Source: Candidatus Gastranaerophilales bacterium (lineage in GTDB: Bacteria; Cyanobacteriota; Vampirovibrionia; Gastranaerophilales; Gastranaerophilaceae). Taken from it: a stretch of 64,000 nucleotides of DNA. The stretch lies in NCBI GenBank assembly GCA_944322885.1, contig CALUQH010000017.1, positions 6,787 to 70,786 on the forward strand, in the 5' to 3' direction. Shown one piece after another: positions 6,033-59,044 of this stretch. Below the pieces are notes generated by a model, which was not told the DNA's origin, ran no database searches, and was given only the letters and a program-made list of their open reading frames with translations. Made by a program: the position numbers and the translations under genes. Position 1 is the first letter of the stretch. The number at the start of each line of letters is the position of its first letter.

Positions 6033-7097
6033 TTAACTTATTTCTTCAGGCAAAAGACTAAATTCCTCTACCGTTGAGTAGTCTGTAGGAAGAACAAAGA
6101 CAATATGTTTTGATGTTGCCTTTTTATCCATCTGCATTAGTTCAATCATTTTTTCCTGATTAAATGGGGGAATTTCACGGAAATTGAATTTTTTTATTAC
6201 ATCATCAGCAAAAAATTTGTAGTTTTTATCAATCAAATTTCTCTTAACCGCGAGATTAAATGCGAATTTAAGCCCCTCAACAACGGCTTCACCGTGTGTG
6301 TATTTTTTGTAATTGGTAATTTTTTCGATTGCATGGCCGTAAGTGTGCCCGAAGTTTAAAATTTTTCTTAATCCGCTTTCTGTTTCATCTTTTTCAACAA
6401 CGGAAATTTTTAGTTTTACGCAGATTTCTATGAGTTTGGAAAGAGTTTTTTCATCACGGCTTAGAATATCTGAAGTTTTTTCGCTTAAAAAGTTTGTGAG
6501 GTTTAAATCTTCACCGCACCTGCAGCTTTTTTCAATAAAAGCGTATTTGACAACTTCACCCAGACCGCTTTTAAACTGCCTGTCATCAAGGGTTTTTAAA
6601 AATCCTGGATTGATAAAAACAGCATCGGGCTGATAAAACGAGCCTACGAGATTTTTTCCGTAATTTGTATCAATTGCCGTTTTTCCGCCGACAGAACTGT
6701 CAACACAGGCCAAAAGGGTTGTCGGTACCTGAATATAGCCTATACCTCTCATGTAAGTTGACGCTGCAAATCCTGCCATATCTCCGACAACGCCGCCGCC
6801 TATTGCAACAATTGCATCATGGCGCGTAAGTTTCATTTTCAGGGCTTTTTCAAGAATTCTTTTATAATTTTTGAAATTCTTTTCTTTTTCGCCGTCTTTT
6901 AATACAAATTTTTGAGATTTGTCAAAGCCTAGTTCTTTTCCGTATAGCTTTTCAACCTTTTCCGATATTACAACAAGAAAGTTTTTCCCGTTTAAAAAAG
7001 ATAAAATTTGTTTTTTTAATGCAGAAACCGTACAACTTTCTATAAAAATAGGATAGCTTTTATTTTCAGATTTAATATTAACTGACAGATTAATCAT
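6033..7097 (-). CDS. aroB: 3-dehydroquinate synthase
   Basis: GGGVVGDMAGFAASTYMRG, PTTLLACVDSSVGGKT, LNFGHTYGHAIE. Confidence 0.97.
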   Translation of the reverse strand: MINLSVNIKSENKSYPIFIESCTVSALKKQILSFLNGKNFLVVISEKVEKLYGKELGFDKSQKFVLKDGEKEKNFKNYKRILEKALKMKLTRHDAIVAIGGGVVGDMAGFAASTYMRGIGYIQVPTTLLACVDSSVGGKTAIDTNYGKNLVGSFYQPDAVFINPGFLKTLDDRQFKSGLGEVVKYAFIEKSCRCGEDLNLTNFLSEKTSDILSRDEKTLSKLIEICVKLKISVVEKDETESGLRKILNFGHTYGHAIEKITNYKKYTHGEAVVEGLKFAFNLAVKRNLIDKNYKFFADDVIKKFNFREIPPFNQEKMIELMQMDKKATSKHIVFVLPTDYSTVEEFSLLPEEIS

Positions 7098-7599
7098 TGA
7101 TTACCCCGAGAATTTCTTTGACGATATTATAGGGAGTTTTTCCGGTTGTGTCAATTGTGTGGTTTGCTTTCAGGTAATTTTTCTCTCTGTTTTTCATTAT
7201 ATTTTCAATTTTTTCAAGAGAAAAATTTCTTTTTAAAAGCGGTCTGTGGGTTTCGTTTTTTATTCTGTTGTAAATTTCGTCGGCTGCTGCTTTGAGATAA
7301 ATTACAACTCCGTTTTCAAGCATGATTTTACGGTTGTCTTCATTTTCAAAAGCTCCGCCTCCGGCACTGATTATTTTTTTCTCGCCAGTGCAGAATTTTT
7401 TTATTTTGTCTGATTCAAGCATTCTGAAAAAAGGCTCGCCATGTTTCAAGAAAATTTCCGAGATTTTTTTCTGTGTGCTTTTTTCAATCTCGCTGTCAAT
7501 ATCTATAAGAGAGTATTCAGGCAGCGTTTTAGAAAGCTCTTTACTCACTGTTGTTTTTCCGCTGCCCATCATGCCGATGAGGATTATATTTTTATTCAT
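7090..7599 (-). CDS. aroK: Shikimate kinase
   Basis: LIGMMGSGKTT, DIDSEIE, GEPFFR, GGG, RPLL; upstream of aroB. Confidence 0.95.
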   Translation of the reverse strand: MNKNIILIGMMGSGKTTVSKELSKTLPEYSLIDIDSEIEKSTQKKISEIFLKHGEPFFRMLESDKIKKFCTGEKKIISAGGGAFENEDNRKIMLENGVVIYLKAAADEIYNRIKNETHRPLLKRNFSLEKIENIMKNREKNYLKANHTIDTTGKTPYNIVKEILGVIND

Positions 7600-7618
7600 A
7601 AGAATATTTTACAATAAA

Positions 7619-7648
7619 AAAATACCTGTTTAACTAACAGGTATTTTT
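7619..7648 (-). terminator. Intrinsic terminator after ctpA
   Basis: AAAAATACCTGT-N6-ACAGGTATTTTT inverted repeat. Confidence 0.8.
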
Positions 7649-7666
7649 CTTATAAAATTTGTTTAT

Positions 7667-8890
7667 CTATTGAGCTGCAATTTCCTGACCATTTGTCATT
7701 TTGCTCAACACTTCTATTGCTTTTTTCAATTGAACATCGTTTTTATTTTTTACATCTTCTTCTGTCAGTTTAACTTCAATATCGGGTGTAATTCCTTTTT
7801 TGTTAATATCTGTTCCGTTAGGTGTCAGATATTTTTGGATTGTAATGTTTATGCCTGATTCATAAGGAAGTTTGTTGATTTCCTGAACAAGACCTTTACC
7901 GAAAGACTGCTCGCCGATAATGATTGCTCTGTGGTTGTCTTTCATTGCTCCCGAGAAGATTTCTGAAGCCGAAGCCGAACCTTTGTTAATCAAAACAACA
8001 ACCGGTTTGTTTGTATAAACTCCTGCAGCTGCTCTTTGAGTTTCTTTGTATCCGTCCCTGTCAACCGTGCTGACAATTGTTCCGCCGTCAAGGAACATAT
8101 CCGAGATATAAATAGCGTTTGTTAAAAGTCCGCCGGGGTTTGAACGGAGGTCGATAATAAACCCTTTTTTATCTCTGTTGTTGTTTAATATTGTTCCGAA
8201 TTCAGCTGTTGCATTTCTGCTGATAAAAGAGCTCAATCTGATATAGCATAAGTCATCGGGAACTTTGATATTTTCAGTCGGAATTTTTTGTGAAATTGAT
8301 TTAACTTCAATTTCAGCACGCGTAATAGTGTATAATTTCGGTTCCATTCCCGCACGTTTTACAAGAAGAGTAACTTGTGTACCTTCCTTACCTCTGATTT
8401 TATCGGCAGCTTTGTCAACAGTAATCCCTTTTGTGCTTACACCGTCTATTTCAAGGATTTCGTCATCAGCTTTCAATCCTGCTTTTTCCGCAGGGGTGTC
8501 TTCGATAGGCGCAATTACCATTAATTTGCCGTCTTTAACCCCGATTTGGATACCGATACCTTTCAGCGAACCTTTGATAGAACTTGTTTCTTCCGCAAAT
8601 TCTTTAGGATCCAAAAATTTTGTATAAGGGTCGTTTAAGCTTGCAACCATTGTATTGATTGCTACATAAGCGTCTTCATTTGTTTTAATCTGATTGTCAT
8701 ACTTGTGGCGCCATTTTGCCCAATCCTGCGAGTTGTTTGTCTGGTCGACAAATTTGGTATTAATCAATCTCCATACGTTGTCATACAAATCAATCGGGCT
8801 GTATGCAAATACGTTATCTCTGATTACCCAGCCTGACAGGAACAAAAATGCCCCGAAAAATATAATGCTTTTCTTCATAATGTTTCTCAT
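7667..8890 (-). CDS. ctpA: S41A C-terminal processing peptidase with PDZ domain
   Basis: LNDPYTKFL, GIGIQI PDZ, DLRSNPGGLL, SASASEIFSGA (Ser), FGKG (Lys). Confidence 0.93.
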   Translation of the reverse strand: MRNIMKKSIIFFGAFLFLSGWVIRDNVFAYSPIDLYDNVWRLINTKFVDQTNNSQDWAKWRHKYDNQIKTNEDAYVAINTMVASLNDPYTKFLDPKEFAEETSSIKGSLKGIGIQIGVKDGKLMVIAPIEDTPAEKAGLKADDEILEIDGVSTKGITVDKAADKIRGKEGTQVTLLVKRAGMEPKLYTITRAEIEVKSISQKIPTENIKVPDDLCYIRLSSFISRNATAEFGTILNNNRDKKGFIIDLRSNPGGLLTNAIYISDMFLDGGTIVSTVDRDGYKETQRAAAGVYTNKPVVVLINKGSASASEIFSGAMKDNHRAIIIGEQSFGKGLVQEINKLPYESGINITIQKYLTPNGTDINKKGITPDIEVKLTEEDVKNKNDVQLKKAIEVLSKMTNGQEIAAQ

Positions 8891-37147: not shown

Positions 37148-37245
37148 TGCTTGAAATTTAAAATTTTTTATGAGAAGATTTAACTCGGCGGTTGTGAGAT
37201 ACAAATTTTAACACATCGTTTCTAACAAATTGAATATAAAAATAT

Positions 37246-37319
37246 GGCAAGGTAGCTCAGCTGGTGAGAGCGCACGGCTCATACCCGTGAGGTCGAGAGT
37301 TCGAATCTCTCCCTTGCTA
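37246..37319 (+). tRNA. tRNA-Met(CAT), probably elongator; CCA not encoded
   Basis: CACGG-CT-CAT-AC-CCGTG arm, paired G1 acceptor, no triple G-C anticodon stem; Ile2 not fully excluded. Confidence 0.9.
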
Positions 37320-37327
37320 TTTAATTT

Positions 37328-51866: not shown

Positions 51867-53012
51867 CTATCCGAGTTTTCTTTTAAATGTCCTTCCGGCA
51901 AGGGTTAAAGTTATTAGGGCAATTATAATCAGCGGGATTAGATTTATGAAAACATCTGCAAACCCCATTCCTTTTAAAAATATTCCGCGGGTTAAAACCA
52001 TAAAAAATCTAACAGGATTAAGCCAAGTCAAATATTGCAGAGCAACCGGCATATCCTCTATCGGAGAAATAAATCCGGACAAAAGCACCGCAGGCATCAT
52101 AAATGTCATTGCGGATAAAATTGCCTGCTGCTGGGTGTTGCAGATTGCAGAAAAATAAAGTCCGACGCCGACTATCGCAAGCAGAGAAATAAAAATTGAA
52201 ATCATAAACAAAAGGAATGAGCCGGCAAACGGGATATGGAAAAATATAATTACAATTCCGGTCATAATCATAGTTAATGCCATTGCAATAATAAGAGGCG
52301 GGATTGATTTGCCCAGCAGAATTTCAAAAGAGGAAAGAGGGCTTACGATAAGCTGGTCAAAAGTTCCGAGTTCTCTTTCGCGCGCTATTGACAAAGATGT
52401 TAAAATTAAAGTCGTGACAAGCGAGAGCATTGCAACAATTACTGTTAAAATATACCATTTATATTCAAGGTTTGGATTAAACCAGTTACGGACAGATATA
52501 TTTATATTTGCACCGCTCATAACTCCCTCGCCCCGTGCGGGAGGTTTTGTTGATGAAGAAACTTCCGCCCCGTAGCCTGTAATTATTTGTGATGCATAAC
52601 CTGAGGCAATAGATGCCGAATTGGTTTGCCTGCCGTCTGAAATTACCTGAACAGTTGCTGTTTCCCCTGATTTGATATTTCGTGAAAAATCATTATTTAT
52701 CATTAATCCAATCTGGACTTTTTGTGTATCAAGTTTCTTTTTAAAATCCGCTTCATTATCCACATAGTAAAAATTTCTGAATCTCGGCGAATTTTCAAAC
52801 CTTGATAATAATTCTCTTGATTCGACACTTTGAGAACGGTCAAAAACAGCTGTATCAATATTTTGCACTTCCATTGTCGCAGCGTTTGAAAAAATCAAGA
52901 GCTGCACTATCGGAAGCCCGATAATTATCCCTTTTGTTTTCGGGTCATTCCAGATTGTTATAAATTCTTTTTTCATCAGCGCAAGAACTCTGCGGAAAAA
53001 ATCTCTTAACAT
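51867..53012 (-). CDS. ABC-2 permease (YbhR-like)
   Basis: ARERELGTFDQLIVSP, LSGFISPIEDMP; carries a partial palindrome insert (KPPARGEG). Confidence 0.9.
   Translation of the reverse strand: MLRDFFRRVLALMKKEFITIWNDPKTKGIIIGLPIVQLLIFSNAATMEVQNIDTAVFDRSQSVESRELLSRFENSPRFRNFYYVDNEADFKKKLDTQKVQIGLMINNDFSRNIKSGETATVQVISDGRQTNSASIASGYASQIITGYGAEVSSSTKPPARGEGVMSGANINISVRNWFNPNLEYKWYILTVIVAMLSLVTTLILTSLSIARERELGTFDQLIVSPLSSFEILLGKSIPPLIIAMALTMIMTGIVIIFFHIPFAGSFLLFMISIFISLLAIVGVGLYFSAICNTQQQAILSAMTFMMPAVLLSGFISPIEDMPVALQYLTWLNPVRFFMVLTRGIFLKGMGFADVFINLIPLIIIALITLTLAGRTFKRKLG
52524..52544. repeat. Palindromic element, partial copy, in-frame in a permease
   Basis: TCCCTCGCCCCGTGCGGGAGG. Confidence 0.8.
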
Positions 53013-53025
53013 TTTATTATCTCCA

Positions 53026-54189
53026 TTATGGTTTTTCCTCGCCTCGTGCGGGTGAGGGTGCCCGAAGGGCGGGTGAGGGGTATTTTTCCAGCCTCATAGA
53101 AGTATTTTTATAAACAGCGGCAAATAAAATCAAACCGAGTATCGTCAAATATATTGCATTGGCAGTAACAATTTCGGGTACTGTTCCCGCCATAAACTCG
53201 CTTTCTATAAACGAAACATAATATCTTGGCGGTAAAATTCTTGTCAGATGCTGGAAAAATACCGGCATGGAATTTATCGGGAACATTAAGCCTGAAAGCA
53301 TTAGAGCCGGCATAAATCCTACACTCATGGCAACCATGCTGGCTAAGAATTGATTTTTCAATACTGATGAAACATTTAACCCTATTCCAAGTGATGTAAA
53401 GAGGAATAAACTGCTTACCAGCAGCAAGACAAAATAATTCCCCCTGAATGGTATTTGAAAAATAACAATGCAGAGAAAAATATTAAATGTGAGCGACAAC
53501 ATTCCTAAAATGAAATACGGAATATATTTGCCTAAGACTATATGAATTGTTTTTACTGAGGTTGAAAGCATGGCTTCCATAGTTCCTCGCTCCCATTCGC
53601 GTGCAACAACAAGCGAGGTTAATAAAATTCCGATTAGAGTCATTGTGATTGCGATTGATCCGGGAACAATAAAATAATGACTGTTTAAATCGGGATTGTA
53701 CCATGTTCGGACTTCGGTATTTATTGCAGGTTGTTTTGCGGAATTTGCATATTTGCTCGTTGCAAGCCAGTTGTTTGCAATTGCAAGAGCATAACTTTGA
53801 ACATAATTTGCCGTATTAACTTCCGAACCGTCTGTGATTACCAGTAAATCGGCATTTTGTCCTCTTGCGAGTTTTGTTGAAAAGTCGTTAGGGATTATAA
53901 CTGCTCCTTTAATTTTTGAACGGGCAATCGCGGTTTCAATATCTTTTACATTATCAAAATATATTGAATTAACGTATTTGCTGTGTCCGAAAGATTTGAC
54001 AAGCGTCGCAACTTCAGGCGTCGGGTCATCATTTTTAATCCCCATCGTAACTCTGACAGAATCCAGATTTATCCCGTACATATAAATCAGGATAGAAATT
54101 AAGGGCAGTACAAATGCGATTATTATACTGCTCGGATCGCGGAGAATTTGTTTAATTTCTTTTTTTATAAGCGCAAGAAGTATTTTCAT
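53026..54189 (-). CDS. ABC-2 permease (YbhS-like)
   Basis: RDPSSIIIAFVLP, AREWERGTMEAMLST; C-terminal PSPALRAPSPARGE comes from the element. Confidence 0.9.
   Translation of the reverse strand: MKILLALIKKEIKQILRDPSSIIIAFVLPLISILIYMYGINLDSVRVTMGIKNDDPTPEVATLVKSFGHSKYVNSIYFDNVKDIETAIARSKIKGAVIIPNDFSTKLARGQNADLLVITDGSEVNTANYVQSYALAIANNWLATSKYANSAKQPAINTEVRTWYNPDLNSHYFIVPGSIAITMTLIGILLTSLVVAREWERGTMEAMLSTSVKTIHIVLGKYIPYFILGMLSLTFNIFLCIVIFQIPFRGNYFVLLLVSSLFLFTSLGIGLNVSSVLKNQFLASMVAMSVGFMPALMLSGLMFPINSMPVFFQHLTRILPPRYYVSFIESEFMAGTVPEIVTANAIYLTILGLILFAAVYKNTSMRLEKYPSPALRAPSPARGEEKP
53037..53080. repeat. Palindromic element, full copy in the permease 3' end
   Basis: Minus strand CCCCTCACCC-GCCCTTCGGGCA-CCCTCACCCGCAC-GAGGCGAGG. 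Confidence 0.9.
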
Positions 54190-55760
54190 TCTTTTTCACT
54201 CTCCTTTATAAGCGTTATAAAAGTTTCTTCCATTGTTTTTGCGCGGGCTTTGTCCTTTAATTCCTGCGGAGTTCCGAGAGCGATTGTTTCCCCGTGATAG
54301 AAAAGACTTATTCTGTCGCAGTACTCTGCCTCGTCCATAAAGTGGGTTGTTACAAGTATTGTTACTCCCTTTTTGGCAAGGGATGTAATATGGTTCCAAA
54401 AATCGCGCCGTGTCAGAACATCAACGCCGGATGTCGGCTCATCAAGAAACAATACGGGCGGATTATGGATTAGAGCGCATGCCATTGAAAGACGCTGTTT
54501 TAAACCCAGCGGTAACTCTTCGCTTTTTTGGTCTGCATACTCTTTTAAACCAAAAACTTCAATAATTTCCTGAACTTTAGATGCTCTGTTTTTAAATTTT
54601 ATGCCGTAAGCTGATGCAAAAAATTCAAGATTTTCTCTGACGGTAAGGCTTCCGTAAAGCGAGAATTTTTGCGCCATATAGCCTAAATTTGAGCGTGCTT
54701 TTTCTGGATCTTTTGTAATATCAATTCCCATAATTCTTGCTGTTCCGTTTGTCGGTTTGGCAAGCCCGCACATCATCTTGAAGGAAGTTGATTTTCCAGC
54801 CCCGTTAGGTCCGAGAAGTCCGAAGATTTCTCCTTTTTGTATGCAAAATGAGTTGTTTTTTACAGCATAAAAATTTCCGTATTTTTTTTCAAGATTATCT
54901 GCCTCAACGGTATAAAATTCGGATTGTCCCCTCACCCGGCACTTTGTGCCACCCTCTCCCGCATGGGGCGAGGGTAAAATGTCTGTATATTCGTAATTTT
55001 TAGCAATCAAAGACTCTTCCTGCTTATATCCGCCCATAAGATCAATTACTTTATCTTCAAATTCTTGTGCCGTTGCCCCCAAATCATGCGGTTTACCCTC
55101 ATAAATTACTCTTCCTTTGTCTATAACAACTGCGGTATCAAAACTGTGGGCTTCATCCAGATACGCTGTTGACCATAAAACTGTTGTTTCGGGGTTTATC
55201 ATTTCACGCACCATTTGCATTAAATCTTTGCGTGAAATCGGGTCAACCCCGACAGACGGTTCGTCGAGAAGCAGAAATTCGGGATTGCCGAGAAGAGTAC
55301 AGGCTAATCCGAGTTTCTGTTTCATTCCGTCCGACAATGCACCTGCAAGTCTGTCTTGAAACGGCGCAAGTTTTGTAAATTCAAGCATTTTATTAAGTAT
55401 TGACCCCTCACCCTTAATCCCTCTCCCGCAAGGGGCGAGGGAAATTCCTTTTAAATCCGCATAAAGTGTCAAGTTTTCAATAACCGTTAAGTCTTCATAA
55501 AGCCCGAACTTTTGAGGCATATAACCGATAAGCGGTGTTAATTCGTCTTTTTGGGTTACAGGATTAAATCCGAGTGTTAAAATTTCTCCTTTATCGGGAA
55601 CTAATAGTCCGATAATTGTCCGTAAGAGCGTGGTTTTTCCCGCTCCGTCAGCGCCCATTAACCCTGTGATTTTACCTTTTTCAATATTCAGAGAAAGGTT
55701 ATCAAGAGCTGTTATTTTCCCGAAAGTTTTTGTTAAGTTTTTAATTTCTACGGTGTTCAT
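54186..55760 (-). CDS. Dual-domain ABC ATP-binding protein (YbhF-like)
   Basis: GADGAGKT/LLLDEP and GPNGAGKS/LFLDEP; two in-frame element inserts; first signature reads LSDGM. Confidence 0.92.
   Translation of the reverse strand: MNTVEIKNLTKTFGKITALDNLSLNIEKGKITGLMGADGAGKTTLLRTIIGLLVPDKGEILTLGFNPVTQKDELTPLIGYMPQKFGLYEDLTVIENLTLYADLKGISLAPCGRGIKGEGSILNKMLEFTKLAPFQDRLAGALSDGMKQKLGLACTLLGNPEFLLLDEPSVGVDPISRKDLMQMVREMINPETTVLWSTAYLDEAHSFDTAVVIDKGRVIYEGKPHDLGATAQEFEDKVIDLMGGYKQEESLIAKNYEYTDILPSPHAGEGGTKCRVRGQSEFYTVEADNLEKKYGNFYAVKNNSFCIQKGEIFGLLGPNGAGKSTSFKMMCGLAKPTNGTARIMGIDITKDPEKARSNLGYMAQKFSLYGSLTVRENLEFFASAYGIKFKNRASKVQEIIEVFGLKEYADQKSEELPLGLKQRLSMACALIHNPPVLFLDEPTSGVDVLTRRDFWNHITSLAKKGVTILVTTHFMDEAEYCDRISLFYHGETIALGTPQELKDKARAKTMEETFITLIKESEKE
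54928..54975. repeat. Palindromic element, full copy in-frame in the ABC ATPase linker
   Basis: CCCCTCACCC-GGCACTTTGTGCCA-CCCTCTCCCGCAT-GGGGCGAGGG. Confidence 0.93.
55404..55442. repeat. Palindromic element, full copy in-frame in ABC domain 1
   Basis: CCCCTCACCC-TTAAT-CCCTCTCCCGCAA-GGGGCGAGGGA. Confidence 0.93.
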
Positions 55761-55766
55761 TGTTTA

Positions 55767-56177
55767 TTACCCCTCACCCGACACTTCGTGCCACCCTCTC
55801 CCGCAAAGGGGCGAGGGTGAAGCTATTTCCTTTATTAAAAACTCATAGCAGCCTTCTATATTGTCGTCAATTTCATTATTCCAAAACCTAATTACTTTAA
55901 AATTTTGTTTTTCAATATAAAAAGTTCTTTGTATATCTGAAAAAGAACCATTATGATGTCCGCCGTCGATTTCTATAATAAGTCGTTTTTCCAGACAAAC
56001 AAAATCAGCAATATACTTATTATCTATTGGAAATTGTCTGCGGAATTTTACTCCAAGTTTAGAGTTTCGTATTATCTGCCACAATTTACGTTCTTGCATT
56101 GTTTGTTCTTGACGCATTTGTCTTGCAAATTCTTTTATATATTGTGCATAATATCTGTGTTTTTTATTAGTTACCAT
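55767..56177 (-). CDS. DUF559 (Vsr/PD-(D/E)XK-like) endonuclease
   Basis: ARQMR..T.QERKLW, KFRRQFPI..YIADFVCLEKRLIIEIDGGHH, VIRFWNNEI; last residues (PSPLCGRGWHEVSGEG) encoded by the element. Confidence 0.9.
   Translation of the reverse strand: MVTNKKHRYYAQYIKEFARQMRQEQTMQERKLWQIIRNSKLGVKFRRQFPIDNKYIADFVCLEKRLIIEIDGGHHNGSFSDIQRTFYIEKQNFKVIRFWNNEIDDNIEGCYEFLIKEIASPSPLCGRGWHEVSGEG
55770..55817. repeat. Palindromic element at the 3' flank of the DUF559 gene
   Basis: CCCCTCACCC-GACACTTCGTGCCA-CCCTCTCCCGCAAA-GGGGCGAGGG. Confidence 0.93.
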
Positions 56178-56198
56178 TGAGTCCTCTTTATTTTTATT

Positions 56199-56238
56199 CC
56201 CTCGCCCCCTTTGCGGGAGAGGGATTAAGGGTGAGGGG
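56199..56238. repeat. Palindromic element at the 5' flank of the DUF559 gene, inverted relative to 55770
   Basis: CCCTCGCCCCC-TTTGCGGGAGAGGG-ATTAA-GGGTGAGGGG; supplies the stop codon of the HlyD gene. Confidence 0.93.
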
Positions 56239-57085
56239 TAATATCAGTTAAATCCACCTTAATAGTTACAGGCATACCCTGACGCAAGTATTCATCTATA
56301 TCATAAATATAAACTCTTATACGATAAACCAGATTTGTTCTTATATCTGTTGATTGGACGGTCTTAGGTGTAAATTCCGCAACAGGAGAAATATATCCGA
56401 CCTGACCTTTGTATTCTCTTTTATTGCCTGTTTTGGGATCAGTTGTGTCTGTGTAAACTTTTACGGTTTGTCCGTATTTGATGTTGCCTAAATCTGTTTC
56501 GTTAACATAAGCACGCACCCATACAGGTTTTGTTTTTGCCATTGTGTAAACCGGCTGGCCTTTAGATACATTTGCTCCCAGTTCCTGAACTCTTATCATA
56601 ATTATTCCTTCTTCCGGTGCATAGACTTTTGTATAATCCAGCTGGTTTTTAGCAAAATTTTTCTGTGCAACTGCGCCGTCATAATCAGCTTTTGATTTGT
56701 TTTTTGTGTTCAATAAGGTGTCATAATCCTGTTTTGAAATCGTATTATCCTCAACCAGAGGCGCTTGACGTTCAAATTTTGATTCGGCATCGTTTTTCAG
56801 GGCAAGTGTTTTTTCAACATCGGCCTCTGCCTTTTCCAGATTTGATACATAATCCTTATCATCTAGAATGGCTATTAACTCACCTGCTTTTACAGTATCG
56901 CCTTCTTCTTTCAGCATTTTTTCAATCTTGCCCGCTACCTGAAAACTTAAATCAACCTGCCGGATTTCAATGTTGCCGTAAAGCGTAAGTTCATTTTCTG
57001 TTTTACGGTTTTTAAAATACAAAAATCCTAAAGTCCCGCAAACGATTAAAACTAATAATATCAAAACGATTGCTTTTTTCTTCAT
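56225..57085 (-). CDS. HlyD-family periplasmic adaptor (YbhG-like)
   Basis: LYGNIEIRQVDLSF, WVRAYVNE, GYISPVAEFTPKTVQS..RTNLVYR. Confidence 0.92.
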   Translation of the reverse strand: MKKKAIVLILLVLIVCGTLGFLYFKNRKTENELTLYGNIEIRQVDLSFQVAGKIEKMLKEEGDTVKAGELIAILDDKDYVSNLEKAEADVEKTLALKNDAESKFERQAPLVEDNTISKQDYDTLLNTKNKSKADYDGAVAQKNFAKNQLDYTKVYAPEEGIIMIRVQELGANVSKGQPVYTMAKTKPVWVRAYVNETDLGNIKYGQTVKVYTDTTDPKTGNKREYKGQVGYISPVAEFTPKTVQSTDIRTNLVYRIRVYIYDIDEYLRQGMPVTIKVDLTDITPHP

Positions 57086-58407
57086 AATTGACCTCCGACG
57101 GCTTTATATAATGTGAAATAATTTACTATTCTCTGTGTTTTTGCCTGTGCGTAATTTGTTTGCGTATTTATAAATTTATTTTCTTCTGCCAGATATTCAG
57201 GCTCGGAAATAACTCCTTGTCTGAGTTTTTTTTGTGCGTTTTGGAAATTCTGTGTTTCATAATTAAGCTCTGATTTTGTATTATTCTCTATTTGTTTATC
57301 ATGTTTGATTATACAAAGCGATGTATTAACTTCTTTGACAGCCTCCAAATTCGTCTGATTATAGTCCTCAAAAAGTTCTTCATACTTTGCTTTTTGAATT
57401 TTTAAATTTGCAACCTTCATCCCGCCTTTAAAAATATCCTGCGTTGCACCTGCTAAAATTGCTGCAAGTGAAGATTCCCATGAAAAAAATGTCCCGGGTG
57501 CTATGGTATTAAAAGCCCACACGCCGACAATATTAAATCTCGGGAAAAATTCTTTTTTAGCAACTCTTACATCAATTTTTGCTTTTTCAAGATTTGCCTC
57601 TGCCATTTTCACATCAGGTCTTGCAAAAATTACATCAGAACTTATTTCGTCAGGGATTTTGCCGGAATATTCAAAACTTTCCAAATCTCCTACCTTCATA
57701 TCAGCAATATTTGAGGAAGAATTCCCTGTCAAAACCGCTAGCTGCATCATTGCTGTTTCGCGTTCCTTTTGTAATTTTTCGAGAGAACTTTTGCCTGCTT
57801 CTACACTTTTTTTAGCATTATTCAACTCAGTTAAACTTATAACTCCGCGTTCATATTTTTTAATGCTTCTGTTTAAAATTTCTTCCTGATTTTTTACAAT
57901 TTTTGTTTGTCTTTCAATCAAATCGTCATACTGCAGAATATTTGTATAAACAGTTGCGACATCGGTTAAAAGTGCTAAATAAATTGTTTTTTCATTAAGT
58001 TTTGCAGCCTCCCAGCTTTTCTTTACCGATTTCGTTTTATCCCTGTTTTTCAAAAGTAAATCTGCCTCATAACTTGCCATAAAAGGAAGTATAAAAGCAT
58101 TATCTTTTAATTGAAAAGTGTCCAGTTCAGGAACTTTTATCCCAAGATAATTTGCGCTGACACTGAATGAAGGGAGTTCTTTCCCCAGAGAATATTTTGT
58201 CTGCTGGCGGTACTGTTCAACAACATAACCGGCTTTTTTTAAGTCATGGTTGTTATTCAACGCATCCTGAATATAGCAGTTCAAGTTTTCATCGTTAAAC
58301 CTGTTAAAAAATTCAATATTCAATTCCTGAATATCAACCGCAAAGCAGCTTTGTGCCATAAACAGCAAAACTAATACAAGGAGCAGTTTTTTAATCCTAA
58401 TTTGCAC
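57082..58407 (-). CDS. TolC-family outer membrane efflux protein
   Basis: Signal peptide, ALNNNHDLK, ARPDVKMAE, FFPRF, LYKAVGG. Confidence 0.9.
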   Translation of the reverse strand: MQIRIKKLLLVLVLLFMAQSCFAVDIQELNIEFFNRFNDENLNCYIQDALNNNHDLKKAGYVVEQYRQQTKYSLGKELPSFSVSANYLGIKVPELDTFQLKDNAFILPFMASYEADLLLKNRDKTKSVKKSWEAAKLNEKTIYLALLTDVATVYTNILQYDDLIERQTKIVKNQEEILNRSIKKYERGVISLTELNNAKKSVEAGKSSLEKLQKERETAMMQLAVLTGNSSSNIADMKVGDLESFEYSGKIPDEISSDVIFARPDVKMAEANLEKAKIDVRVAKKEFFPRFNIVGVWAFNTIAPGTFFSWESSLAAILAGATQDIFKGGMKVANLKIQKAKYEELFEDYNQTNLEAVKEVNTSLCIIKHDKQIENNTKSELNYETQNFQNAQKKLRQGVISEPEYLAEENKFINTQTNYAQAKTQRIVNYFTLYKAVGGQL

Positions 58408-59044
58408 CCTCCTTTATAACACTTTTAATATAAAGTTTTACATTTTCTTTTATAATTTTAATATCTTCTTCACAGAAGTCATCCTGCCCGAGAGGTCTAA
58501 GCGAGAATGCCGGAAGAATACGCGGAGAATTTACCTGAGAAAGCATGAAGAGAGTTTTAAATATAACAAGCCTGTCATTAACATCTTTGTTTAAAACTCT
58601 TGCAACCACAGCTCTCATATAATCCAGAACCGGAGATTTGACTATAAAATCGGGTTTTTGCTGTTCTTTTAACAGCAAAACTATTAAATCCGAAGAAATA
58701 TTTGTATAGAAAAAGTCAACGAATTTTTCGGATATAACCATTAGCAAATCAGCACATTCATCAATGCTCATACTTTTGGGATTTTTATTCAAATCAAGAA
58801 AATTTTTGGAGTATTCAATCTGTTTTTCAAGGAGATTTTCGATAATACCGTTGTACAATTCTTGTTTTCCGCCCCAGTAATATGAAATCATGCAAAGATT
58901 TACATTAGCTTTTTTGCAGATTTCTCTGATGCTTGTTCCGTCAAACCCCTTTTGTGCAAAAAGCTTTGTTGCAGCCTCTAAAATTCTTGTTTTTGAATTT
59001 TCATCTTTTTCATTATCATAGACCATAATGTAATTATAAAACAA
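58397..59044 (-). CDS. TetR-family regulator (CecR/YbiH-like)
   Basis: ILEAATKLFAQKGFDGTSIREIC..ANVNLCMISYYWGGKQELY; heads the efflux operon. Confidence 0.88.
   Translation of the reverse strand: MFYNYIMVYDNEKDENSKTRILEAATKLFAQKGFDGTSIREICKKANVNLCMISYYWGGKQELYNGIIENLLEKQIEYSKNFLDLNKNPKSMSIDECADLLMVISEKFVDFFYTNISSDLIVLLLKEQQKPDFIVKSPVLDYMRAVVARVLNKDVNDRLVIFKTLFMLSQVNSPRILPAFSLRPLGQDDFCEEDIKIIKENVKLYIKSVIKEGAN

Follow-up and report, generated by a model that had tools for sequence, protein, structure and literature searches.

In-frame BoxC-type triplex repeats in a Gastranaerophilales efflux operon and their association with a candidate DUF559 nuclease gene

How do short repeats come to lie within coding sequence, and what becomes of the proteins whose genes take them up? 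The question is raised by a 64,000-nt stretch of DNA (hereafter the window; assembly GCA_944322885.1, contig CALUQH010000017.1, positions 6,787 to 70,786) from a Candidatus Gastranaerophilales bacterium, in which GC-rich units interrupt or terminate the genes of an ABC efflux operon beside a gene of the DUF559 family. The GC content of the window is typically ~34% (29–44% over 2-kb segments), whereas that of the inserts is ~70%. An earlier note on this DNA read the units as palindromes that had been inserted in frame, writing new peptides into transporter proteins in different reading frames. That reading is right in substance: the repeats were inserted, are read in several frames and were kept where the frame was preserved. 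The units are not simple palindromes, as the note had called them, but tripartite triplex motifs whose third block, GGGTGAGGG, it missed, and they belong to the known BoxC / PIT / TMECO intrastrand-triplex family, which is not new. BoxC/PIT repeats have been known in E. coli since the 1990s, in a literature that includes Hoyne & Maher 2000, and occur in hundreds of genomes. The explanation that we consider probable is that BoxC-type units were copied into the efflux operon and are read there in frame, and we infer that a DUF559 nuclease together with DNA repair did the copying.

Triplex-motif units within coding sequence

Six units were found, all within positions 52524-56240 (~3.7 kb) and all inside or at the ends of genes of an efflux operon resembling ybhGFSR. 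A full triplex-motif (TM) unit consists of a pyrimidine arm (CCCTCGCCC), a 5–7-nt loop, a purine arm (GGGAGAGGG), a spacer of 5 or 14 nt and a mirror-image third block (GGGTGAGGG). Four units fit all three 9-nt blocks exactly and two more (53029-53085 and 52524-52544) are degenerate; three are internal to open reading frames (ORFs) and three overlap ORF ends.

56199..56237, plus strand: full TM unit, CCCTCGCCC / CCTTTGC / GGGAGAGGG / ATTAA / GGGTGAGGG; left boundary of the DUF559 cassette
55771..55817, minus strand: full TM unit with a 14-nt spacer that holds its own small hairpin; right boundary of the DUF559 cassette, inverted relative to 56199-56237
55392..55448, minus strand: variable segment GISLAPCGRGIKGEGSILN of nucleotide-binding domain 1 (NBD1) of the ABC ATPase, residues 105-123; full TM unit at 55405-55441
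54909..54992, minus strand: linker segment EYTDILPSPHAGEGGTKCRVRGQSEFYT between the two NBDs of the ATPase, residues 257-284; full TM unit at 54929-54974
53029..53085, minus strand: degenerate TM unit in opposite orientation, CCCCTCACCC - GCCCTTCGGGC - ACCCTCACCCGCACGAGGCGAGG; overlaps the start of permease 2
52515..52562, minus strand: permease-2 segment VSSSTKPPARGEGVMS, residues 151-166; hairpin-only TM remnant at 52524-52544

A motif scan with CCCTCNCCC and GGGNGAGGG revealed no TM unit in the remaining 60 kb of the window, only two isolated chance 9-mers, and the combination CCCTCNCCC-N3-6-GGGNGAGGG was observed three times in the window against 0.00 expected (100 shuffles). The unit at 56199-56237 forms a 33-nt inverted repeat (I1) with the copy at 55403-55435, with 97% complementarity. 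When GGGTGAGGG was read backwards against GGGAGAGGG, 9/9 positions formed allowed triads (G*G.C, A*A.T, T*A.T), and the hairpin part of the units was predicted to fold at -8.6 to -13.3 kcal/mol (z -1.5 to -2.8).

The coding contribution of the units was traced copy by copy. The unit at 56199-56237 encodes the last residues of HlyD (TPHP) and its stop codon TAA (56225-56227, within the ATTAA spacer), and the unit at 55771-55817 supplies the final 16 residues and the stop codon of DUF559, whose tail PSPLCGRGWHEVSGEG spans 55770-55817. In the ATPase, NBD1 gains SLAPCGRGIKGEG (55404-55442, 39 nt) and the linker gains LPSPHAGEGGTKCRVRG (54927-54977, 51 nt), both on the minus strand and in the frame of the gene. 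The tail of permease 1, YPSPALRAPSPARGEEKP (53029-53082), is encoded by the degenerate unit of opposite orientation, and KPPARGEG of permease 2 (52524-52547) falls within the large loop that joins transmembrane helices 1 and 2, which the positive-inside rule suggests is extracytoplasmic. All of these peptides, and the origin of the HlyD stop codon, had been named in the earlier note; for the linker it had given 54928-54975, but 48 nt cannot encode 17 aa, and that span corresponds approximately to the unit core at 54929-54974.

The two ATPase copies are read in different element frames (U2 vs U0), as had been claimed, and at least three combinations of frame and orientation are used overall. 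Each unit has four or five reading frames, out of six, without a stop codon, so that ribosomes would read through. P, S, G, E and R abound in the unit peptides, whose composition varies with frame and orientation, and the predicted junction peptides include GISLAPCGR, GIKGEGSILNK, NYEYTDILPSPHAGEGGTK, CRVRGQSEFYTVEADNLEK and PPARGEGVMSGANINISVR. In three chicken-gut runs labelled RNA-Seq, contigs crossed 54922-55072 (linker unit) and 52286-52925 (permease-2 unit) without a skip; such contigs may contain DNA and are weak evidence of expression. Contigs from another public run (X1, chicken-gut DNA) broke or veered into unrelated sequence exactly at the copies (52684-52944, 54929, 55403 and 55770-55802), as expected if other copies or strain variants share the same sample.

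Filled and empty alleles

Comparison with close orthologs revealed that the units are true additions. Three hot spots were recognized in the ATPase: site 1 after ADLK in NBD1, site 2 in the linker after NY, and site 3 at ELK-x-KA near the C-terminus. Among the window protein and its 120 closest orthologs (79–97% identical), 52 were empty at all three sites. The window ATPase measures 524 aa (494+12+18) and the insert-free orthologs, aligned or fetched, 494 aa; element-free orthologs are thus shorter and not of equal length, the outcome on which the earlier note had made its claim of insertion depend. The operons of two relatives, L001 and L003 (95% and 94% DNA identity), are without the DUF559 cassette and both ATPase units and have a shorter permease-1 tail. 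Permease-1 orthologs end in VPSRPNIERQKQQ or VSARQPEERQVEK, and the tails of both permease 1 and HlyD in the window are rewritten relative to close orthologs. The permease-2 unit is common to L001 and L003 with a 3-nt in-frame difference and is absent from L008 (87% identical) and L006 (79%), which read AEILPKN-NGASIN where the window has AEVSSSTKPPARGEGVMSGANIN (+30 nt, 10 aa).

The net length changes are all multiples of 3, namely +36 nt at site 1, +54 nt at site 2 and +30/33 nt in permease 2. The insertions are not clean, as neighbouring codons were replaced too. At site 1, 57 nt (GISLAPCGRGIKGEGSILN, GIS...SILN) stand in place of 21 nt in the empty allele (NVPHEFE, 7 aa); at site 2, where the empty linker has 10 aa, TLLKDIKDC gave way to EYTDILPSPHAGEGGTKCRVRGQSEFY (EYTDI...SEFY), and relative to another linker type that is free of the element (DYKAPEVELT), exactly 18 codons are gained. 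The unit cores in the ATPase measure 37 and 46 nt by regular expression, or 38 and 47 nt with the trailing G; none of these is divisible by 3, so the frame is restored in the flanks and not by loop length. Insertion is real, although the gains differ from the 39 and 48 nt first proposed, and loop variants do exist (CAA/CAT/CAAA and GGGG/GGGGG) but are not what keeps the internal copies in frame.

The closest relative, L004 (ATPase 97% identical), has a 12-nt in-frame deletion in its site-1 unit, by which the hairpin is gone and the third block kept (GISLSGIKGEGSILN), and it carries a +45-nt unit at site 3, which is empty in the window.

Two predicted helices flank the NBD1 segment, with the Q-loop on one side and the signature motif on the other. 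In an AlphaFold2 model of the ATPase built from a 27-sequence alignment, of which only the secondary structure was used, one insert is placed between predicted helices (residues 104-119) and the other in an unstructured linker (260-282). In a sequence search of the PDB, NBD2 gave the best alignment, and the NBD1 insert could not be placed directly on a structure. The surviving copies sit at places that probably tolerate added residues: in the helical subdomain of NBD1 its variable loop, then the linker between the NBDs, the extracytoplasmic permease loop and the C-terminal tails. From this pattern among survivors, selection would appear to have filtered for frame-preserving insertions.

Hot spots in the population

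Across the orthologs, the three sites showed 33, 29 and 40 distinct sequence states, and mapping presence and absence onto a neighbour-joining tree built from columns outside the sites required at least 8, 12 and 10 changes. All eight presence/absence combinations of the three sites occur. Site 2 holds units in both orientations among strains (TPHPNPLPQGARE vs LPSPHAGEGGTKCRVRG). In L176 (the contig of P0004), the site-1 and site-2 units share a nested 60-nt segment, CTCAGCCCTTCGGCATACAGTCTCACTAGGCTCATTCTTCGCCTGTTCGAACTTGCATCC, identical in both but oppositely oriented, which interrupts the pyrimidine arm where the stem mismatch lies; it represents either a second small element that targets this position or gene conversion between the two units. 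The eight combinations, the two orientations and the shared nested segment together point to repeated exchange among copies plus allele shuffling between strains, not to a few ancient hits, and the patchy distribution among orthologs requires recombination or gene conversion besides independent insertions.

These data bear on a simpler account, in which each site was hit once, long ago, and recombination has since shuffled the alleles between co-resident strains, with no nuclease and no ongoing mobility. The full set of combinations fits this account, as do the flanking substitutions that insert-bearing alleles share whatever their subtype (GI... at site 1, EY... at site 2, RKALEL...ELP at site 3) and the divergence of the flanks themselves (ESLIAKNY vs xSKIAENY). 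Taken alone, however, it leaves unexplained the opposite orientations at site 2, the identical nested segment in two units of one gene, the concentration of six copies beside the DUF559 cassette with none in the other 60 kb, and the near-identical units across phyla. We therefore regard shuffling as an unlikely sole cause, though it probably contributes beside the copying of units into the operon.

The units belong to the BoxC / PIT / TMECO family

The published motif, 5'-CCCTCNCCC N3-6 GGGNGAGGG N3 GGGNGAGGG, has 3610 copies in 262 proteobacterial genomes (Holder et al. 2015, PMC4666352). The CCCTCGCCCC/GGGAGAGGG mismatch of the window units is also that of 'A mm', the commonest E. coli type, and the E. 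coli motif forms a triplex in vitro (PMC4666352). E. coli K-12 MG1655 has only 23 TMECO copies, all intergenic, and E. coli has five inverted doublets; TMECO loci are unusually variable between strains, and triplex motifs have been reported to promote local rearrangement (PMC4666352).

Beyond the window, lineage variants were found in which all three blocks are altered together (CCTTCTCCC/GGGAGAAGG/GGATGAGGG and CCCCTCCCC/GGGGAGGGG/GGGGTGGGG). The exact asymmetric hairpin is present in at least 120 metagenome contigs, and the 80 listed loci span 35–73% GC. Within 70 nt 3' of the hairpin, GGTGAGGG occurred in 52/78 listed cases, against 0/78 on the 5' side, and long-spacer forms were also common among the listed metagenome loci. 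No Rfam family matched the region; a single sub-threshold match to nuoG was attributed to chance. In four low-GC metagenome contigs, ORFs read through the hairpin:

L054, 2899-2921: Zn-dependent alcohol dehydrogenase, unit inside the ADH_zinc_N domain
L057, 12266-12288: CysS, unit between the catalytic and DALR domains
L085, 5182-5204: PanC, unit inside the Pantoate_ligase domain
L074, 166-188: DUF2344 protein, unit ahead of the DUF2344 domain

In the first three of these ORFs, Pfam domains continue on both sides of the hairpin; the coding of units is thus not peculiar to the efflux operon.

Inverted doublets 65–160 nt apart with no gene between them were observed in L043, L049, L055, L077, L090 and L092, and in L055 and L049 the third blocks point inward, as in the flanks of most DUF559 genes. 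These doublets may be empty or gene-less cassettes.

The host operon and its DUF559 cassette

The host operon (51867..59044, minus strand) is arranged like E. coli cecR-ybhGFSR, to which DUF559 is added:

58397-59044, minus strand: TetR/CecR-like regulator
57082-58407, minus strand: TolC-like outer-membrane factor (OEP)
56225-57085, minus strand: HlyD-like adaptor
55767..56177, minus strand: DUF559 gene, 136 aa, predicted Vsr-like PD-(D/E)XK nuclease (PF04480, E 4.5e-34)
54186-55760, minus strand: ABC ATPase with two NBDs, 524 aa
53026-54189, minus strand: ABC-2 permease 1
51867-53012, minus strand: ABC-2 permease 2

Public runs that contain the ATPase gene are mainly chicken-gut and manure metagenomes. 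In the genome collection, the DUF559 locus nearest to that of the window (99% identical) belongs to a Candidatus Gastranaerophilales metagenome-assembled genome (MAG). Elsewhere in the window, and unrelated to the units, are two tRNA-Ala genes with anticodons TGC and GGC, ~750 nt apart (14719-14794 and 15550-15622), and a tRNA-Met gene at 37245-37320.

The DUF559 gene is bracketed in the window by the inverted pair 56199-56237 and 55771-55817, and close relatives either have or lack the cassette between hlyD and the ATPase gene. Flanking inverted TM-type repeats were found in 13/15 genomic DUF559 relatives (≥42% identity), scoring above the maximum of 286 control pairs (29 in the inverted-repeat flank test). 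At least five phylum-level groups are represented among these 13 (Gastranaerophilales, Patescibacteria, Dehalococcoidia, Pseudomonadota and rumen MAGs), and an independent IMG/VR set gave inverted TM flanks at 14/15 DUF559 relatives. Distant DUF559 genes had no such flanking inverted repeats. The flanks are all triplex-type, and their arms and third block covary by lineage, with 44 perfect 9/9 matches on the 3' side vs 6 on the 5' control side; covariation with the DUF559 lineage is expected if the protein recognizes its own units. Unit-derived peptides also stand at the termini of many DUF559 homologues (SPLAGEEEFQHE..NSGEG at the N-terminus, TPHPSPLPQGARG at the C-terminus). In the reverse direction, a DUF559 gene was near only 2 of the 80 listed TM-bearing metagenome loci, in both cases at most 56 nt from the unit; the association holds when one starts from the gene but not when one starts from the repeat. 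No other candidate enzyme stood beside the units in any locus examined.

The association extends to E. coli K-12, where the DUF559 homologue YcjD ends ...RSPSP* in a degenerate hairpin and a full TMECO lies ~170 nt downstream, a proximity with a chance probability of ~0.002 as estimated from 23 copies in 4.6 Mb. The ycjD gene is present in 3378/5426 complete E. coli genomes and absent from ~38%. Between ycjD and the full TMECO, the K-12 locus (L144; NC_000913.3 1351040-1351900, locus positions 7040-7900) holds a partial duplicate of the ycjD 3' end (GGAGACGGTGCTGGAGAATATTC... twice). A clean empty ycjD site in E. coli was sought; the ycjD-less strain CU568-3 proved uninformative, having a different, efflux-gene island between sapF and fabI. 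DUF559 genes have also been reported as enriched 14-fold among predicted targets of programmed inversion (PMC9881135), an enrichment that inverted flanks would produce.

PF04480 was the sole Pfam match of the window gene. Its AlphaFold2 model (predicted local distance difference test, pLDDT, 83.8) gave Foldseek matches to 3hrl, 3r3p and 1vsr (E 6e-7 to 3e-2), and among 67 sequences D71, H75 and D81 are invariant and E69 is ≥90% conserved. By sequence and predicted fold, the protein is a member of the Vsr-like PD-(D/E)XK nucleases. The sequence GGGCGAGGA at the empty hlyD-ATPase junction of L001 was considered as a cassette remnant and rejected, as it represents native HlyD C-terminal codons (T-G-E-D/E) found in L173, L174 and L175. 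No link between DUF559 and triplex/BoxC repeats was found in the literature, of which coverage was incomplete, so this is no proof of novelty.

A candidate mechanism and the points against it

Copying would start with the Vsr-like DUF559 nuclease, encoded between two inverted units. The enzyme would act on the folded unit with its conserved G.A stem mismatch, and the resulting break would be repaired from another unit copy. Repair from another copy would account for the replaced flanking codons, the reuse of three sites, the varying orientation and subtype at each site and the shared nested segment. We put forward only tentatively, as something we would not yet expect to hold, that DUF559 is the partner of BoxC/triplex repeats in the manner of REP-RAYT systems, a PD-(D/E)XK nuclease that acts on the folded, mismatch-bearing unit and triggers copy-and-paste repair.

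Several observations weigh against this mechanism or against the in-frame reading of the units. No target-site duplication was seen in filled/empty comparisons at the cassette, at sites 1–3 or in permease 2, the flanks being replaced instead. The nuclease activity of DUF559 is predicted and its mobilizing role putative. No transposase or integrase was found near the E. coli copies, and none of these moved in long-term evolution lines (PMC4666352). As many as 78/80 listed hairpin metagenome loci are without DUF559 nearby. L172 and L174 carry ATPase inserts with no DUF559 gene at the locus, for which reason a tie between the inserts and a local DUF559 gene was rejected. The third block is proximal to DUF559 in most lineages and distal in the window; such a mixture of flank arrangements is unusual for a transposon with fixed ends. 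As for the proteins, the ATPase model is poor (mean pLDDT 54.7) and surface exposure of the inserts only putative; their translation is predicted, RNA-Seq-labelled contigs being the sole evidence of expression. The NBD1 signature of the window ATPase reads LSDGMKQ (55317-55337, residues 142-148) in place of LSGGMKQ, which is invariant in 26/26 others of the A1 alignment, including the closest insert-bearing ATPases; this allele may therefore be impaired, through reduced ATP hydrolysis at the NBD1 site after the Gly-to-Asp change, or the change may be a sequencing error.

Some of these points would fit a different role for DUF559, namely that of a homing-type selfish gene that targets inverted TM doublets, with the units spread otherwise, or that of a host factor for the processing of triplex or hairpin DNA. 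The closest characterized relative by fold is a homing endonuclease, most units have no DUF559 nearby, both flank arrangements occur, and gene-less doublets exist (the six metagenome loci listed above and five in E. coli) in the arrangement of most DUF559 flanks. Against such a role stand the covariation of the flanking units with the DUF559 lineage and the lack of any other candidate enzyme adjoining the units at the examined loci. We judge this alternative possible but, on balance, doubtful.

Direction of change and integrity of the genes

A change in the opposite direction, in which the units are ancestral at these sites and the insert-free lineages lost them by deletion, is suggested by the decay visible in the 12-nt in-frame deletion of the L004 site-1 unit, by the scattered presence and absence on the ortholog tree, and by the reported promotion of local rearrangement by triplex motifs (PMC4666352). 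The insert-free alleles are not deletion scars, however; they have conserved segments of their own of 7, 10 and 6 aa (NVPHEFE in 53 sequences, TLLKDIxDCT and NKARAK). The GC content of the inserts departs from that of the genome, the more distant L008 and L006 are without the permease-2 unit, which suggests that the insert-free state is basal, and unrelated genes in other contigs hold the same element family. Ancestral units are therefore improbable.

That the insert-bearing genes are decaying pseudogenes whose peptides are never made in a working pump, as the LSDGMKQ signature might suggest, is more improbable still, since the window holds four successive intact ORFs over ~3.9 kb despite an AT-rich genome, all six operon genes are under purifying selection (dN/dS, the ratio of nonsynonymous to synonymous substitution rates, 0.05–0.14 for the window vs L001), the same inserts occur in several independent assemblies with LSGGMKQ intact (P0001, P0003), and RNA-Seq-labelled contigs cover insert regions.

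Significance

The locus offers natural before and after alleles, at nucleotide resolution, of BoxC-type repeats that enter coding sequence and are retained as peptides. In-frame insertion into genes, its recurrence at three ATPase hot spots and the association with DUF559 appear to be new relative to the literature searched. DUF559 provides a candidate enzyme, and the E. coli homologue ycjD makes the question testable in a model organism. The system is a second one, independent of the Rickettsia elements, in which selfish repeats add loops to essential-type proteins, and because many population variants exist, the tolerance of each site can be measured. If DUF559 were the partner of the repeats, this would explain their spread across phyla, the genomic instability near them and their repeated conversion to protein sequence in AT-rich genomes.

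Comparison with known systems

The window units share with BoxC/PIT/TMECO the three 9-nt blocks (CCCTCNCCC, GGGNGAGGG, GGGNGAGGG) and the conserved G.A stem mismatch, and likewise occur as single units and inverted pairs, across phyla and linked to locally variable regions. They differ from the published motif in loop 1 (5–7 nt vs 3–6) and loop 2 (5 nt, ATTAA, or 14 nt vs 3), and so represent a spacer variant of the TMECO pattern. Unlike TMECO in E. coli K-12, which is intergenic, the window copies lie within coding sequence and are read through, and unlike the copies described by Holder et al., for which no mobility gene was reported, they cluster beside a DUF559 gene.

Intragenic MITEs (miniature transposable elements with inverted repeats), such as ERIC, Correia/NEMIS and the cyanobacterial MITEs, are likewise small non-autonomous repeats that are sometimes found in frame in genes (PMC10969869). 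MITEs, however, descend from insertion sequences (IS) and carry both terminal inverted repeats and target-site duplications, whereas the TM units show neither duplication nor IS-type ends nor transposase.

As in the repetitive extragenic palindrome (REP)/REPIN-RAYT systems, the repeats stand singly or as inverted doublets, a single-copy gene is bracketed by inverted copies, and the repeat covaries with the gene lineage. RAYT is an HUH/Y1 transposase related to IS200/IS605, whereas the window gene is a DUF559 gene for a predicted Vsr-like PD-(D/E)XK nuclease; REPs are extragenic with no triplex-type third block described, whereas the TM units are intragenic and have one.

In predicted fold and in residues E69, D71, H75 and D81, the window DUF559 resembles Vsr (1vsr), the EDxHD homing endonuclease I-Bth0305I (3r3p) and the DUF559 protein NGO0050 (3hrl). 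Unlike the genes of Vsr and I-Bth0305I, it is free-standing, outside any intron or intein, and has no partner cytosine methyltransferase gene in the window.

The closest parallel to the peptides themselves, and one that the earlier note had aptly drawn, is with the Rickettsia palindromic elements (RPEs), which measure ~100–150 bp, are confined to Rickettsia, encode one conserved peptide per family and have been suggested to supply new protein sequence (Ogata et al. 2000, 2002, reviewed in PMC10969869). The TM units differ in their length of 37–47 nt, their occurrence in many phyla, their use of several frames and both orientations and their triplex-type architecture. Like the RPEs, they are small repeats that lie in frame in unrelated genes and add a peptide (+36, +54 and +30 nt in the window) while the host ORF stays intact.

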